Assembly: GCA_026395595.1 (NCBI GenBank)
Contig: JAPLYL010000003.1
Location: forward strand, 76,136-140,135
Source: Candidatus Parcubacteria bacterium
GTDB taxonomy: Bacteria; Patescibacteriota; Minisyncoccia; Phycocordibacterales; CAIJYI01
Direction of reading: 5' to 3'
DNA: 64,000 bases
In this document: positions 3,076 through 57,964 of the stretch, piece by piece
How the letters are laid out: the number at the start of each line of letters is the position of its first letter
How positions within the stretch are numbered: the first letter of the stretch is position 1
The notes under the pieces: generated by a model
The model's database searches: none
Told to the model about the DNA's origin: nothing
What the model saw: only the letters and a program-made list of their open reading frames with translations
Translations under genes and position numbers: made by a program

Positions 3076-3081
3076 AAAATA

Positions 3082-3108
3082 AAGGCCCGGAAATTCCGGG
3101 CCTTTATG
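3082..3108. terminator. Bidirectional intrinsic terminator shared by ftsX (+) and a convergent small ORF (-).
   Basis: The hairpin aaaggcccggaaattccgggccttt is a perfect stem with a flanking T-rich run. Confidence 0.7.
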
Positions 3109-3396: not shown

Positions 3397-5073
3397 ATGG
3401 CAACAAAGAAAAAAACAGCGGTCAAGCGAAGAAAATATATTTTTGTAGTCGGTGGCGTGATGTCGGGAGTGGGGAAAGGCATTACGGCATCGTCCATCGG
3501 CGTCATTTTGCAAGACCGCGGTTTTAAGGTAACTTCCATAAAAATTGATCCGTATGTGAACGTTGATGCGGGTACCATGAACCCGACAGAACACGGAGAA
3601 GTGTTCGTTTTGAACGACGGTTTTGAAACTGACCAAGATATGGGAAACTATGAACGGTTTTTGAATGTCTCCATTCCTTCCGATAACTACATGACGACCG
3701 GACGCGTATACCTTTCTGTCATAGAAAAAGAACGAAACTTAAAATATAAAGGCAAATGCGTGCAGGTTGTTCCCCACATTCCTCTTGAAGTTATTTCCCG
3801 CATTAAATTTGCCGCGGAAAAAGCCGATGCGGATATTGCCATTATTGAAGTCGGAGGTACTGTCGGCGAATACGAGAACATTCTCTTTGTGGAAGCCGCC
3901 CGTATGATGGAATTGCAAAACCCAGATGATGTTTCCTGCGTGATGGTTTCGTATCTCCCCGTCCCTTCAAAGCTCGGAGAAATGAAAACGAAACCGACCC
4001 AGCATGCTGTCCGCGCGCTCAATTCAAACGGCGTTCAACCGAATGTCATTATTGCTCGTTCCAGTGAACCGCTTGACCAGGTGAGGAAAGAAAAGATTGC
4101 GCTCTTCTGCAATATGCGTCCGGAAAATGTCATTTCCGCGCCCGATGTGGAAAGCATTTATGACGTGCCGATAAACTTTGAGAAAGATAAATTATCAGAC
4201 AAACTTCTCTCTTCTTTGAAACTGAAAGCGAAGAAAGATTCTTCTTTGAAAGAATGGAGAAAATTCGTCGCGACAACCAAGAATACCAAAAAAGAAGTGA
4301 ACATTGCCGTGGTGGGAAAGTACTTCAGTACGGGGGATTTTGTTTTGTCTGATGCGTACATTTCCGTCATTGAAGCGATAAAATATGCAGCGTACGTGAA
4401 TGGAGCGAAGCCGATTTTGACATGGCTTTCGTCGGAAGAATTTGAAGGCGATGCGGCAAAAACCAATCTCCGCACCCTCTCAAATTATGACGGTATTTTG
4501 GTACCGGGAGGTTTTGGTTCTCGCGGAATAGAAGGGAAGCTCTCCGTTATTAAATACGCGCGCGAACATAAAATTCCGTATTTCGGTTTATGTTACGGTA
4601 TGCAGCTTTTGGTTATAGAATTTGCGCGGAATGTTCTTGGGTTTGATGTGGCTAATACGGCGGAAATAGATCCGAATTCTCCGCATTTGGTCATTGATAT
4701 TATGCCCGATCAGAAAAAGAAAATGAAAGAAGAAAATTACGGCGGAAGCATGAGGCTCGGCGCCTATCCTGCTATTTTGAAAAAGGGAACCGTTGCCGGA
4801 AAAGCATACGGCGAAAAAAAAGAAATTTCCGAAAGACATCGTCATCGCTATGAAGTGAATCCAGAATACGTTGAACGATTGGAAAAAGGCGGACTTGTTT
4901 TTTCCGCCACTTCTCCTGACGGCGTGTTGATGGAAATAGCCGAGCTTCCCGAAAGCAAACACCCATTTTTCCTCGGCACCCAATTCCACCCCGAACTTAT
5001 CGCCCGTCCGCTTGATCCACATCCTTTGTTCGTGGAATTTGTGCGGGTCGCTTTGTTTCAGAGTAAAAAATAA
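3397..5073 (+). CDS. pyrG: CTP synthase.
   Basis: The N-terminal synthetase motif GGVMSGVGKGITASS is present. The C-terminal class I glutamine amidotransferase has a GLCYGMQ cysteine and a HPE histidine-glutamate pair. Confidence 0.95.
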   Translation: MATKKKTAVKRRKYIFVVGGVMSGVGKGITASSIGVILQDRGFKVTSIKIDPYVNVDAGTMNPTEHGEVFVLNDGFETDQDMGNYERFLNVSIPSDNYMTTGRVYLSVIEKERNLKYKGKCVQVVPHIPLEVISRIKFAAEKADADIAIIEVGGTVGEYENILFVEAARMMELQNPDDVSCVMVSYLPVPSKLGEMKTKPTQHAVRALNSNGVQPNVIIARSSEPLDQVRKEKIALFCNMRPENVISAPDVESIYDVPINFEKDKLSDKLLSSLKLKAKKDSSLKEWRKFVATTKNTKKEVNIAVVGKYFSTGDFVLSDAYISVIEAIKYAAYVNGAKPILTWLSSEEFEGDAAKTNLRTLSNYDGILVPGGFGSRGIEGKLSVIKYAREHKIPYFGLCYGMQLLVIEFARNVLGFDVANTAEIDPNSPHLVIDIMPDQKKKMKEENYGGSMRLGAYPAILKKGTVAGKAYGEKKEISERHRHRYEVNPEYVERLEKGGLVFSATSPDGVLMEIAELPESKHPFFLGTQFHPELIARPLDPHPLFVEFVRVALFQSKK

Positions 5074-6503: not shown

Positions 6504-6531
6504 AAAAAATGCCCCAATCGGGGCATTTTTC
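6504..6531. terminator. Intrinsic terminator.
   Basis: The sequence aaaaaatgccccaatcggggcatttttc forms a GC hairpin followed by a T-run. Confidence 0.7.
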
Positions 6532-8145: not shown

Positions 8146-8170
8146 GCCGGTACGAGGTTGTACCTCGTAC
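8146..8170. promoter_or_regulatory. Perfect 11-bp inverted repeat with a 3-nt spacer (cggtacgaggt tgt acctcgtaccg) in the divergent glnA / zinc-ribbon promoter region. It is a candidate operator.
   Basis: The palindrome was verified by reverse complement. It contains a GTA-N8-TAC arrangement. It lies about 80 nt upstream of glnA, next to a TTGACT-N18-TATATT promoter on the minus strand. Confidence 0.4.
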
Positions 8171-8270
8171 CGAAATGTTTGTATAACGAAATAATCTCTG
8201 TTTTTTATCTAAACTTTGTCATACACCTCCCCTTGGAAATTTCCCAAAAATCTGTTATTCTAATGACATT

Positions 8271-17298: not shown

Positions 17299-18249
17299 GT
17301 GAAGATATCCAACATGGTACGACGCGCAATCGTTTATTATTTGAATAAATTTTTTATATCTATGGACAAGGTACTTATTCGGATCCACGAAAATATGGAG
17401 TCGGTAAAAAGAATGTCTCAAGATGAAAATCCAATGGAATTCTGGTCGGCTCGCGATTTGATGCCGCTATTGGGTTATTCCACTTGGCGTCAGTTTTCTG
17501 AGTCCATTGAACGGGCAAAAAACGCATGTAAAACAAGTGATCAGGTTGTTGATAGCCACTTTTTGCCGGCGCCGGCAAAAAGTCATGGAGGTCGTCCACA
17601 AGAAGATTATTATCTCACTCGCTATGCCTGTTATCTTATTGCTCAAAACGGCGACCCGCGTAAACCAGAGATTGCACTCGCTCAAACATATTTTGCAACA
17701 CAGACGAGAAAACAAGAACTTTTAGAAAAAAGAGAATACGAAGATAAACGTTTGGAATCGCGCGCAAAACTCAAAGATACGGAAAAGAAAATTGAGGGGA
17801 CGGTCTATCAGAGGGGTATCCGACTTCCTGTTGAGTTTGCAACTTTTAAAAATAAACACATTGAAGCACTCTATGGCGAAATCACCGCCGGCGAATTGAA
17901 ACGAATCCGAAAAATTCCGGGAGGTCAGTCGCTTGCCGATTTTGACAGTAATGTGGAGTTGAAGGCAAAAGATTTTGCACTCGCTATGACCGACCACAAC
18001 ATAAAAGAGAAAAATATTTTCGGAAAAGAAGCGATGAATGCCGAGGTTGTTAAAAACAGCAAAGAAACCCGACAAGCATTGCTTAATCGCGGAATCAAGC
18101 CTGAACTAATAAAACCGGAAGAAGATTTGAAAGTCATAGCAATAAGACGAAAAAAAGAGGAGAACCAAATAAAACCTCAAGCAAAACCAAAACTCATTGA
18201 GGGGAAGAAGAAAAATAGTAATGGGGACAGCCACCACCATTCTTTTTAA
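17299..18249 (+). CDS. dinD: DNA-damage-inducible protein D (DinD family). The real start may be the Met at 17362 or 17395.
   Basis: MEFWSARDLMPLLGY ... IERAKNACKTSDQVVDSHF matches E. coli DinD (EFWSARDLAPLLEY ... IEKAKTACENSGQ ... DHF). An extended -10 element tgGTATTAT lies at about 17252. Confidence 0.6.
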   Translation: MKISNMVRRAIVYYLNKFFISMDKVLIRIHENMESVKRMSQDENPMEFWSARDLMPLLGYSTWRQFSESIERAKNACKTSDQVVDSHFLPAPAKSHGGRPQEDYYLTRYACYLIAQNGDPRKPEIALAQTYFATQTRKQELLEKREYEDKRLESRAKLKDTEKKIEGTVYQRGIRLPVEFATFKNKHIEALYGEITAGELKRIRKIPGGQSLADFDSNVELKAKDFALAMTDHNIKEKNIFGKEAMNAEVVKNSKETRQALLNRGIKPELIKPEEDLKVIAIRRKKEENQIKPQAKPKLIEGKKKNSNGDSHHHSF

Positions 18250-29472: not shown

Positions 29473-29477
29473 AAAAA

Positions 29478-29509
29478 AGCCGTATCACTCAATGGGTGAT
29501 ACGGCTTTG
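29478..29509. terminator. Bidirectional intrinsic terminator between convergent genes.
   Basis: aaaagccgtatcactcaatgggtgatacggcttt forms a hairpin with A/T runs on both sides. Confidence 0.7.
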
Positions 29510-33827: not shown

Positions 33828-33963
33828 CAGATAAAGGGCTTCTTTTTGAAGCCCTTTTTGATTGACAGAATCGGGTGATTTGACTATCTTTCTTTTAGAG
33901 GTAACTTTCTATTGATAGTATTTGTTATCATAAGTACCCTAAAAATAAAAAAGGAGAAAAATT

Positions 33964-46436: not shown

Positions 46437-46463
46437 AAAAAGCCCCGTTGTTCGGGGCTTTTA
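46437..46463. terminator. Bidirectional intrinsic terminator.
   Basis: aaaagccccgttgttcggggctttt forms a hairpin. Confidence 0.7.
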
Positions 46464-56187: not shown

Positions 56188-57906
56188 ATGGTATTTGATA
56201 ATATCCGAACTGAAAGCGATGTAGAGAAACTTAAAAAACGGATCACGAAAGATGCGGTTCTTTTTGCACGTCTGATTGAAATACGCAAAAAAATGAAGTA
56301 CTCCCGAAGAGGAGAACCTACCTCCGCCAAAGGCTTCGGCGAGGTGAGGGAAGACTCGGCGGTAAAAAGTTCTTCTTACGATATGCCGACCAATGCTGAG
56401 GTGCTTGGTTTGTATCGTGAAATGCGCGCTTCGGGAGAAGAACCGGCAAATCCTGTTCTTGAATTGGCGTTGCGAAAAATAAAAACAAAAAGCAATTCGG
56501 GTGTGGCGGTCGTTTCTCTTCTTACGAAGCCTTTTCCTTGCCCGGGGAAATGCACCTATTGTCCGACGGAAGCGAATATGCCGAAAAGTTATTTATCAAA
56601 AGAGCCGGCGGCCGCGCGCGCACTGACGAATGAATTTGATCCAAGGAAACAAATAACTTCCCGGCTTGAGGCGCTCATTACGAACGGACATGCCGTTGAT
56701 AAAATAGAAATAATCGTTATCGGAGGAACGTGGAGTTTTTATCATTCAGCTTACCGTGAATTTGTTATCAAAGAATGTTTCCGCGCCTGCAATGATTTTG
56801 ATCCCATAACCTTTCTGAATCCGAATCCGGAATTACACAGGACTACCCTGTGTACACAGGGTAGTCCTGTGTATGAACTTGACGAACTTCAAAAGCAAAA
56901 CGAGAAGGCAAAATGTCGGATTGTCGGACTTTCCATTGAAACGCGCCCCGATTACATTACCCCCGAAGAAATACAACGTCTGCGCAATTATGGTGTTACA
57001 AAGGTTGAGATAGGCGTACAACATTTAGATGATAAAGTTCTCACCGAGACGAAACGCGATATGACGAAAGCTGATATCGCACGGGCGACAGAATTACTCC
57101 GCGATGCCGGAATAAAGGTGGTGTACCACATGATGCCGAACCTTCCGGGAAGCGATGTAAAAAAAGATATTGAAATGTTCCGAGAGCTTTTCGCGGATGG
57201 TTCCGGGTTTCAACCCGACATGCTAAAAATTTATCCATGCATGGTTTTGGAGGGAAGTGAATTGTATGAAATATGGAAATCCGGAAAATTCCGCACCTAT
57301 ACCAATGATGAGCTTATGGAAGTTCTCCGTGAAGCAAAAAAACTCGTTCCCCCGTATGTTCGCATTTTGCGTGTTATTCGAGATATTCCGGCTGATTATG
57401 TAAAAGCGGGAAGTATCATTTCCAATATGCGCCAATGGCTGGAAGAAGACCAGAAAAAAAATAACTGGAAATGTCGATGTATTCGCTGTCGCGAAGTAAG
57501 GGAAAGGGAAGTGGATGTTTCCGAATGTTCTCTCATAAAAAGAGAATATAATACGCTTTCAGGAAAAGAATTTTTTCTGAGCTACGAAGATGAAAAGAAG
57601 GACATTCTCATTTCTTTTTTGCGTTTACGGTTTCCCGATAAAAATACAGAAACTACTTTACCGGTTTTGAAAAATTCAGCGCTCGTGCGAGAGCTTCATA
57701 CTTACGGAAGATTGGTGCCGATTCACAAAGAAGGAGAACAAGGTCAGCATCGCGGTTTTGGAAAACTCCTTTTGGAAGAGGCTGAAAAACTGGCGCGTAA
57801 AAACGGCTACAAAAAACTCGCCGTTATTTCTGGTGTCGGTGTACGAGAATACTACCGCAAACTCGGTTACGAACTGGAAGAAACCTATATGGTGAAAGAG
57901 TTATAA
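56188..57906 (+). CDS. Elp3-like tRNA carboxymethyluridine synthase (radical SAM plus C-terminal GNAT).
   Basis: The radical-SAM Cys cluster is CPGKCTYCP. The C-terminal GNAT motif A is QHRGFGKLLLEEAEKLARKNGYKKLAVISGVGVREYYRKLGY. Its 572 aa fit bacterial and archaeal Elp3. Confidence 0.8.
   Translation: MVFDNIRTESDVEKLKKRITKDAVLFARLIEIRKKMKYSRRGEPTSAKGFGEVREDSAVKSSSYDMPTNAEVLGLYREMRASGEEPANPVLELALRKIKTKSNSGVAVVSLLTKPFPCPGKCTYCPTEANMPKSYLSKEPAAARALTNEFDPRKQITSRLEALITNGHAVDKIEIIVIGGTWSFYHSAYREFVIKECFRACNDFDPITFLNPNPELHRTTLCTQGSPVYELDELQKQNEKAKCRIVGLSIETRPDYITPEEIQRLRNYGVTKVEIGVQHLDDKVLTETKRDMTKADIARATELLRDAGIKVVYHMMPNLPGSDVKKDIEMFRELFADGSGFQPDMLKIYPCMVLEGSELYEIWKSGKFRTYTNDELMEVLREAKKLVPPYVRILRVIRDIPADYVKAGSIISNMRQWLEEDQKKNNWKCRCIRCREVREREVDVSECSLIKREYNTLSGKEFFLSYEDEKKDILISFLRLRFPDKNTETTLPVLKNSALVRELHTYGRLVPIHKEGEQGQHRGFGKLLLEEAEKLARKNGYKKLAVISGVGVREYYRKLGYELEETYMVKEL
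56834..56873. repeat. Perfect 40-bp palindrome with no spacer inside the Elp3 coding sequence (t-acacaggactaccctgtgt | acacagggtagtcctgtgt-a). It encodes HRTTLCTQGSPVY in frame.
   Basis: It was verified base by base as its own reverse complement. Its local GC is much higher than the surrounding gene. Confidence 0.7.
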
Positions 57907-57911
57907 AAAAT

Positions 57912-57937
57912 ACCGCCCCAAATATCGGGGCGGTATA
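57912..57937. terminator. Bidirectional terminator between the convergent Elp3 and pckA genes.
   Basis: accgccccaaatatcggggcggt forms a hairpin flanked by A/T runs. Confidence 0.7.
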
Positions 57938-57964
57938 ACTTTACGTTACATTAGATTCACTGAA

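Follow-up and report, generated by a model that had tools for sequence, protein, structure and literature searches.

An Elp3 gene in a 64,000-nucleotide stretch of a Candidatus Parcubacteria genome (contig JAPLYL010000003.1, positions 76,136 to 140,135; hereafter the window, with positions counted from its first nucleotide) carries a perfect, spacerless 40-bp palindrome within its reading frame. We consider this palindrome likely to be a REPIN-like doublet of two inverted hairpin units, belonging to a family of the repetitive extragenic palindromic (REP) type in bacteria of the candidate phyla radiation (CPR, or Patescibacteria) and lodged in a tolerant, lineage-specific loop of the Elp3 radical-SAM domain. 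This explanation appears to be the best one, because the palindrome and its relatives match the described features of REP sequences, of REP doublets forming hairpins (REPINs) and of REP-associated tyrosine transposases (RAYTs).

Members of this family are located in terminator positions after genes, on both sides of a Y1 transposase gene and, unusually often, in frame within housekeeping genes. Their presence and absence at orthologous sites in Elp3 and QueA is clear, and the junctions are replacement-like. We infer that the transposase mobilizes the hairpin units. Below, loci compared with the window are referred to by L numbers, and individual proteins by P numbers.

Two inverted hairpin units form the palindrome

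The palindrome occupies positions 56834-56873 (TACACAGGACTACCCTGTGT|ACACAGGGTAGTCCTGTGTA; no strand assigned) and is self-reverse-complementary at all 40 nucleotides (nt), with 20-nt arms and no spacer, as an initial annotation of this DNA had stated. No other spacerless palindrome in the window comes close to it in length: the runner-up has arms of 13 nt, and 20 Markov-simulated versions of the window gave arms of 12 nt at most. That annotation had also called the palindrome GC-rich, which overstates a mild difference (50% GC, compared with 43% in the gene and 41% in the window).

Each arm is itself a hairpin with a stem of 8 bp and a loop of 5 nt, and the whole is a doublet of two adjoining units in opposite orientation that share T/A flanks (TA+17+TA+17+TA). 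The unit has 19 nt and the form ACACAGG-N5-CCTGTGT. Its reference sequence is that of the right unit (56854-56872, plus strand), ACACAGG-GTAGT-CCTGTGT, which encodes TQGSPV. The left unit (56835-56853, minus strand), ACACAGG-ACTAC-CCTGTGT, is the reverse complement of this 19-mer and encodes HRTTLC. The difference between the arms is confined to the loops ACTAC and GTAGT, which are mutual reverse complements. According to folding computations, the doublet forms an 18-bp stem as single-stranded DNA (-20.3 kcal/mol, z = -8.2) and reaches -38.6 kcal/mol as RNA in a 100-nt context. A single unit of 19-21 nt has a stem of 7-8 bp with a 5-nt loop and folds as DNA at -6.8 kcal/mol. Searches of Rfam gave only sub-threshold matches to miRNA precursors, which reflect generic hairpins.

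On its upstream side, the doublet adjoins a tandem duplication, AATCCG x2 (56818-56829, plus strand), that adds the residues NP, two of the seven extra residues of the window's Elp3 (see below).

Presence and absence of the doublet among Elp3 orthologs

The host gene (56188-57906, plus strand) encodes Elp3, an essential enzyme of tRNA modification; this 572-aa protein has Radical_SAM, Radical_SAM_C and GNAT domains and is identical to protein MCX6735912.1 of an NCBI metagenome-assembled genome (MAG). The palindrome is in frame in this open reading frame (ORF) and is presumably translated as HRTTLCTQGSPVY; the translation (L)HRTTLCTQGSPVY corresponds to residues 216-229. These residues are inside the Pfam Radical_SAM match (residues 118-324) and not, as first proposed, between the radical-SAM and GNAT domains. 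They belong to a lineage-specific, length-variable radical-SAM loop (56800-56874, plus strand; residues 205-229) that aligns to about three residues of the solved archaeal Elp3 6ia8. Across 31 aligned CPR Elp3 proteins, no other part varies as much in length, and other lineages have different palindromic doublets in this stretch.

Alignment of Elp3 orthologs revealed that the doublet is variably present. It is found in one further locus, L026 (protein P0241, from another NCBI MAG), whose gene has 93% nucleotide identity to that of the window. There, the left arm differs by one C-to-A change (HRTTMC), and one copy of AATCCG is lacking. Because L026 has the same doublet with one substitution, a separate assembly supports the junction. 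The doublet is older than the split of the window and L026 genomes, whose Elp3 genes differ at 7% of nucleotides, and it was inherited vertically.

The gene of L001, at 79% nucleotide identity and from a different clade and sample, carries the right unit alone (TACACAGGGTAGTCCTGTGTA) at the homologous site; this copy is identical and uses the same codons, and the left unit is absent. The longest identical run between the window and L001 genes is the 24 nt over the unit, even though this is the least conserved part of the protein. In L001, the unit stands in for approximately 27 nt of unrelated sequence, with length unchanged. No unit is present in L002 and L004, which at 83-87% nucleotide identity are closer to the window than is L001, and whose site is occupied by the unrelated sequence SSSESSELSL. 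Loci L027-L031, which are 91% identical to L001, likewise have an unrelated sequence of the same type, SSSQNSDLSL. Since this site sequence is homologous across both clades, it looks ancestral. In L002 and L004 it can form a hairpin, GAAAGT-TCAGA-ACTTTC, with the same loop as a repeat that flanks the transposase gene of L112 (see below); judging by its sequence, this hairpin may be an older, decayed unit.

Relative to the nearest unit-free alleles (L002 and L004), the net gain is seven residues in the window and five in L026. These values are below the 13 added residues initially counted, since the doublet took the place of some older loop sequence.

The unit is a dispersed repeat of Patescibacteria

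Within the window, the half-site proposed as a query has no second match when up to three mismatches are allowed (0 expected). Outside it, the picture is different. An exact scan for the 19-mer, covering 185,579 species genomes with one genome per species, found it in 21 stretches of nine other MAGs, all from Patescibacteria and none from another phylum. The carriers belong to Paceibacterota, Nomurabacteria, Saccharibacteria and unclassified CPR. JBBUBG01 has 11 or more exact copies on six contigs, CAIJYI01 has eight, and others have three to five. By chance, we estimate that about four matches would be expected in approximately 600 Gb, without confinement to one phylum. No viral contig contained the 19-mer.

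Copies are arranged singly, back to back in both orders (+- and -+), as a tandem pair (L018) or as inverted pairs with spacers of 2-15 nt. Doublets with spacers of 0-15 nt are found in L005, L008, L009, L019, L022 and L037, and the back-to-back pairs in L008 (three) and L022 are perfect palindromes of 38-48 bp. Sequences flanking the unit often lengthen the stem and covary, for example AAAAAT...ATTTTT, AGC...GCT or AATT...AATT. Many copies are intergenic, often 2-13 nt past stop codons in a terminator-like position and in one case between convergent genes. The intragenic copies, among them that in the window, make up a sizeable share.

Two other classifications were considered and rejected. 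The units read TA+17+TA, which would suit a miniature inverted-repeat element of the Tc1/IS630 type with a TA target-site duplication; the copies of one genome, however, have C...G flanks (AGC...GCT), and Tc1/IS630-like transposases would require more than 17 nt. A DNA uptake sequence does not fit the low copy number and the association with a transposase. As a separate observation, a second repeated hairpin, GTGCGAGGCTTAGCCTCGCAC, adjoins the ACACAGG unit at two places on the same contig of L012 (approximately 3620-3645 and 4565-4590), which suggests composite repeats.

In-frame copies in other genes

Stop codons are absent from five of the six reading frames of the unit, and in-frame copies occur in several other genes. 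In the Mur ligase gene MurC of L022, the same -+ doublet is read in the same frame, as HRTTLCTQGSPVY, and accounts for a clean 13-residue gap in comparison with the solved MurC 9ir5. The QueA gene of L117, from another metagenome, has the 40-mer at 39/40 identity in a different frame, giving YTGLPCVHRIVLC, and that of L018 has a tandem version of the unit in frame. Further in-frame examples are a spaced pair of units in an HhH-GPD glycosylase (L009) and a single unit in a large secreted protein (L020); L019 has a pair of units in a CysS leader.

QueA allows a more systematic view. We examined 81 loci including L018, and both motifs were found in 79 of them. Among these 79, a long palindrome is present at the insertion in 19 of the 21 alleles that exceed baseline length. 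Exact arms of 8-23 bp are found in 16 of the 19 palindromic alleles, and the arms in L018 and L032/L039 are longer, interrupted or more widely spaced. Alleles of baseline length have no palindrome above shuffle levels. Some inserts are unrelated perfect palindromes, 28, 32 and 38 bp long. One such family (...CACCCCTCATTCGG|CCGAATGAGGGGTG..., 36-38 bp, perfect), in L096 and L099, is present twice in one QueA gene, with insertions at codons ~22 and ~327 in two different frames. Between some close relatives, the sole difference is a flip of the loop (HRTTLC in L018, HR[IV]VL in P0122 and P0126). We discarded a general rule in which one arm is native and the other its inverted copy, since the QueA inserts have both arms non-native.

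Association with a Y1 transposase gene

Homologous ORFs in two different genomes lie between doublets of the 19-mer. In L005, doublets at 427-479 and 1194-1243 surround an ORF at 510-1160; in L008, doublets at 1959-1996 and 2812-2849 surround an ORF at 2009-2740. The encoded proteins, of 216 and 243 aa, are 58% identical and match the IS200-like Pfam family Y1_Tnp (PF01797) at 34.2 bits (L005) and 37.5 bits (L008), above the gathering cut-off of 23. Their sole NCBIfam match is to the REP-associated tyrosine transposase (NF047646). In an alignment of three homologs, the motifs NHFH (an HUH motif) and YIHLN are invariant, and from what is known of the family they would be expected to have catalytic roles. 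In the L113 transposase, the sequence is NHIH, likewise an HUH motif.

Further homologs strengthen this association. L112 and L113 have a gene annotated with PF01797 directly downstream of Elp3, between Elp3 and the gene for phosphoenolpyruvate carboxykinase (PEPCK), with 52-57% identity to the genes of L005 and L008. The L112 gene is bracketed by CCAAGG-TC[A/T]GA-CCTTGG hairpins. The transposase gene of L107 has TTCACGAGGTG-N-CACCTCGTGAA on both sides, and a third copy of this hairpin (2831-2857) is in frame within the transposase gene itself (DFHEVPPREK). In L024, the transposase gene is followed by ...GCAAGG-ACGGT-CCTTGC.... A further feature of L008 is a ParE-like toxin gene preceded by a small ORF; the two, a putative toxin-antitoxin pair (1343-1837), are bracketed by 19-mer doublets and adjoin the transposase gene flanked by the same repeat.

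A superfamily of hairpins with recurrent sites

These hairpins all have one form in common, ...AGG-N5-CCT.... Those with an AGG/CCT closure occur 12 times in 272 kb of QueA loci (0.4 expected) and three times in the window (0 expected). The third of those in the window is CGGTACGAGG-TTGTA-CCTCGTACCG (8148-8172, no strand assigned), a member of a sister subfamily that is intergenic, 33 nt beyond the 3' end of a gene, with a stem similar to the repeat on either side of the L107 transposase gene.

The variable Elp3 loop contains other doublets in L112 (21-bp arms), in L113 (22-bp arms) and in L114, where two units with imperfect stems of their own nevertheless form a perfect spacerless palindrome of 46 bp. 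The L115 loop contains a tandem pair. A second site in Elp3 also has doublets, in L027 and L112, and relatives have a short linker there.

Relation to known repeats

Combined REP/REPIN and RAYT systems have reportedly been termed 'REPtrons', in work said to be that of Nunvar in 2010 and Ton-Hoang in 2012. In REPINs, inverted REP doublets form hairpins, compensatory changes keep the hairpin, and REPs flank a single RAYT gene (PMC3116915); the mechanism by which RAYTs move REPINs was unresolved in that work (PMC3116915). The CPR family resembles the REP/REPIN system (Bertels & Rainey 2011, PMC3116915) in that short, dispersed stem-loops often form inverted doublets that fold as one long hairpin, with compensatory changes preserving the hairpin, copies on both sides of a single Y1/HUH gene and many just past the 3' ends of ORFs. 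It is unlike that system in its CPR host, its ...AGG-N5-CCT... core, its zero-spacer doublets that are perfect palindromes and its many intragenic copies. Other differences are that an identical 19-mer is found across distant CPR lineages, that the same sites are reused and that the CPR transposase is too divergent for the NCBIfam RAYT cut-off. The flanks of the CPR unit are T...A or AGC...GCT and are mostly mutually paired, and sister subfamilies have other loops.

REPs are known to cluster within 20 bp of the 3' ends of ORFs, and intragenic REPs, mostly dimers, are considered to be tolerated in loops or linkers (PMC3733652). For GTAG repeats, the phyla given there are Proteobacteria, Cyanobacteria, Chloroflexi and the Planctomycetes-Verrucomicrobia-Chlamydiae group (PVC); Patescibacteria are not among them (PMC3733652). 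The intragenic GTAG/CGTC REPs described by Di Nocera et al. 2013 (PMC3733652) are, like the CPR copies, singlets or dimers inserted in frame in known proteins, with dimers making up more than half, and different REPs have been observed at nearly the same position of Xanthomonas recB (PMC3733652). They are tagged, however, and encode 20-30 aa, whereas the CPR units are untagged and encode 7 aa per unit or 13 per doublet, with loops that are reused by many sequence variants.

Elements of the IS200/IS605 type and their hairpin-only derivatives (PATEs) share with the CPR family a Y1 HUH transposase, sub-terminal hairpins in single-stranded DNA and the absence of a target-site duplication. Those elements have asymmetric ends and move with their gene as multicopy insertion sequences, whereas the CPR repeats are symmetric and greatly outnumber the transposase gene. 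Rickettsia palindromic elements are reportedly selfish palindromic repeats, said to have been described by Ogata et al. in 2000 as lying in frame in essential genes and being translated as surface segments. Of these, RPE-1 has roughly 100-150 bp and is limited to Rickettsia; we know of no dedicated transposase for such elements. In-frame insertion is shared with them, but the CPR units have 19-21 nt (19-40 nt with the doublet), occur in Patescibacteria and are Y1-associated. Small dispersed repeats of Nostoc and the double-hairpin elements or GC clusters of fungal mitochondria also have approximately 20-50 nt, form hairpins or double hairpins, are occasionally intragenic and have replacement-like junctions. 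Their hosts and sequences are unrelated, and to our knowledge no transposase is linked to them. In the library searched, we found no paper linking RAYTs or REPINs with CPR bacteria, nothing specific on palindromic elements in these bacteria and none with the 19-mer or its peptides.

Proposed mechanism and alternative explanations

We propose that a RAYT-like enzyme, whose gene is either located elsewhere in the genome or no longer present, would bind the single-stranded DNA hairpin, cut it and attach it to other sites. Resident hairpins may be preferred targets, which would explain why variants reuse the same protein loops and why junctions are replacement-like. Selection would then keep only in-frame, stop-free copies in tolerant loops; that in-frame copies would be left is understandable, given that most frames of the unit lack stops. 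In the window, the doublet would have partly replaced an older segment of the Elp3 loop that was itself possibly a decayed unit. The second arm might alternatively have arisen by local inverted duplication of a resident single unit.

Several observations weigh against a REPIN-like origin. The junctions are not clean insertions: L001 shows a same-length replacement, and net changes are 0, +15, +21 and +39 nt. The canonical unpaired GTAG/CGTC end tag is absent, and GTAG is found only in the loop of the ACACAGG subfamily. The ORFs of L005 and L008 score 25.6 and 38.8 bits against the NCBIfam RAYT cut-off of 80 and are therefore distant relatives rather than RAYT equivalogs; the transposase-like protein also had no sequence match to solved structures when searched as a single sequence or as a three-sequence profile. 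The 64-kb window has only one locus of the ACACAGG subfamily and no ORF homologous to RAYT-like or Y1 proteins, including in the Elp3-PEPCK interval, and for these reasons the copy may be a relic. Finally, the two MAGs that have the Elp3 doublet bear neighbouring accession numbers and possibly come from one study.

By the local route, a replication template switch or fold-back at a single unit would have copied it in inverted orientation and so made a perfect palindrome with no new transposition. It would agree with the presence in L001 of exactly the right arm at the same codons, with the identity of the palindrome arms up to and including the shared TA, and with the perfection of the L114 doublet despite imperfect unit stems. 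Moreover, differences limited to a loop flip, such as those of L018 from P0122 and P0126, are a signature of template switching within a hairpin. We nevertheless regard this explanation as unlikely. MurC and QueA of other organisms contain the identical 40-mer or a version with 39/40 identity, and 19-mer doublets flank transposase genes; copies at such unrelated loci imply that the doublet exists as a transferable entity. In addition, L001 is in a different clade, and the closer relatives of the window, L002 and L004, are wholly without the unit. Local duplication accounts for the second arm only and not for the origin of the unit, and a de novo, locally templated origin at each site is contradicted by 19-nt identity across unrelated loci.

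The initial annotation had raised the prospect of a chimeric assembly or an artefact of multiple displacement amplification (MDA), in which case the inverted junction 56853/56854 would be absent from the organism's DNA. Inverted chimeras are a known MDA artefact, but this idea is effectively refuted, and we assign it only a negligible chance. L026 has the same structure at the same site with a point difference and an adjoining 6-nt indel. Identical spacerless doublets are present in contigs of unrelated projects (three in L008, others in L022 and L117, and a 46-bp one in L114), and the MurC and QueA copies come from unrelated studies. Furthermore, the flanks are the two halves of one intact Elp3 ORF, and an artefact would need two precise switches 20 nt apart.

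It is also quite improbable that the palindrome is a structural signal selected by the host, whether for regulation through translational pausing or mRNA stability or as a signal for DNA uptake or recombination. The structure is very stable, intergenic copies occupy terminator positions between A-runs and T-runs, and palindromy is kept at the same protein loops across lineages while the sequence changes, all of which such a signal would explain. However, the closest Elp3 relatives lack the doublet, and the same unit is found in unrelated genes in different frames. Each genome has from a few to about 11 copies, far below the copy numbers of the uptake sequences known as USS and DUS, and a link to a transposase gene is what would be expected of selfish repeats. 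The earlier suggestion of a hairpin-forming recombination site is plausible only in the sense of a transposase substrate, and not as a host function. The REPIN-like doublet agrees in part with another earlier suggestion, that of a recent in-frame insertion of a palindromic mini-element. The mini-element is borne out by the dispersed repeat, by its presence and absence among orthologs and by its occurrence on both sides of a Y1 gene; its description as recent is unsupported, because the insert predates the split of the window and L026 genomes.

Other features of the window and of the Elp3 neighbourhood

Gene order among relatives comprises a coupling protein of a type IV secretion system (TrwB/VirD4-like), two GT4 glycosyltransferases, Elp3 and PEPCK. 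In the window, the Elp3-PEPCK spacer (57907-57964, no strand assigned) has 58 nt and contains a terminator hairpin at 57910-57936. A PemK toxin gene has been inserted into the conserved gene order in L002/L003 (136-522). The Elp3 homologs P0080 and P0114, with 647 and 676 aa, also have a GIY-YIG domain (PF01541), which may represent the fusion or insertion of a homing endonuclease.

In the window, 19 hairpins have arms of 9 bp or longer, whereas about four would be expected. Most are 4-15 nt past stop codons, often with A-runs or T-runs, and are probably intrinsic terminators; examples, besides that after Elp3 at 57910-57936, are at 3079-3107, 6505-6530, 29476-29508, 33833-33857 and 46438-46462. 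A second perfect spacerless palindrome, of 26 bp (ACTTTTTGCCGGC|GCCGGCAAAAAGT, 17558-17583), is located within a DinD/Bro-like ORF (17299-18249) and encodes HFLPAPAKS. The motif HFLPAP[AV]KS.GGRP is kept in homologs, and because of this conservation we do not regard the palindrome as an insertion. Homologs with V in place of A in this motif cannot hold the perfect 26-bp palindrome.

Implications

The in-frame perfect palindromes described here are genuine features of the MAGs and should be retained rather than removed as chimeras. Research on REP/RAYT systems has centred on Proteobacteria, and a divergent CPR version extends them to ultra-small, host-dependent bacteria that make up a large and little-understood portion of the tree. 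The 19-mer, together with the small transposase gene that it brackets, provides a minimal substrate-enzyme pair for the biochemistry of REPIN movement.

Unusual insertions are a known trait of CPR proteins and rRNAs. In the two proteins that we examined, most of the insertions that add length at variable loops are palindromic doublets, which offers a testable origin for such insertions. A broader proposal, which we put forward only tentatively and rate as less likely than not, is that REPIN-type doublets of CPR bacteria, driven by a divergent RAYT clade, are a principal source of lineage-specific, in-frame insertions in housekeeping proteins, with resident hairpins acting as landing pads that new variants serially overwrite. 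If this were true, long perfect palindromes would be unusually well tolerated in CPR bacteria, and a selfish element based on single-stranded DNA hairpins would shape the evolution of protein length across a whole bacterial radiation.

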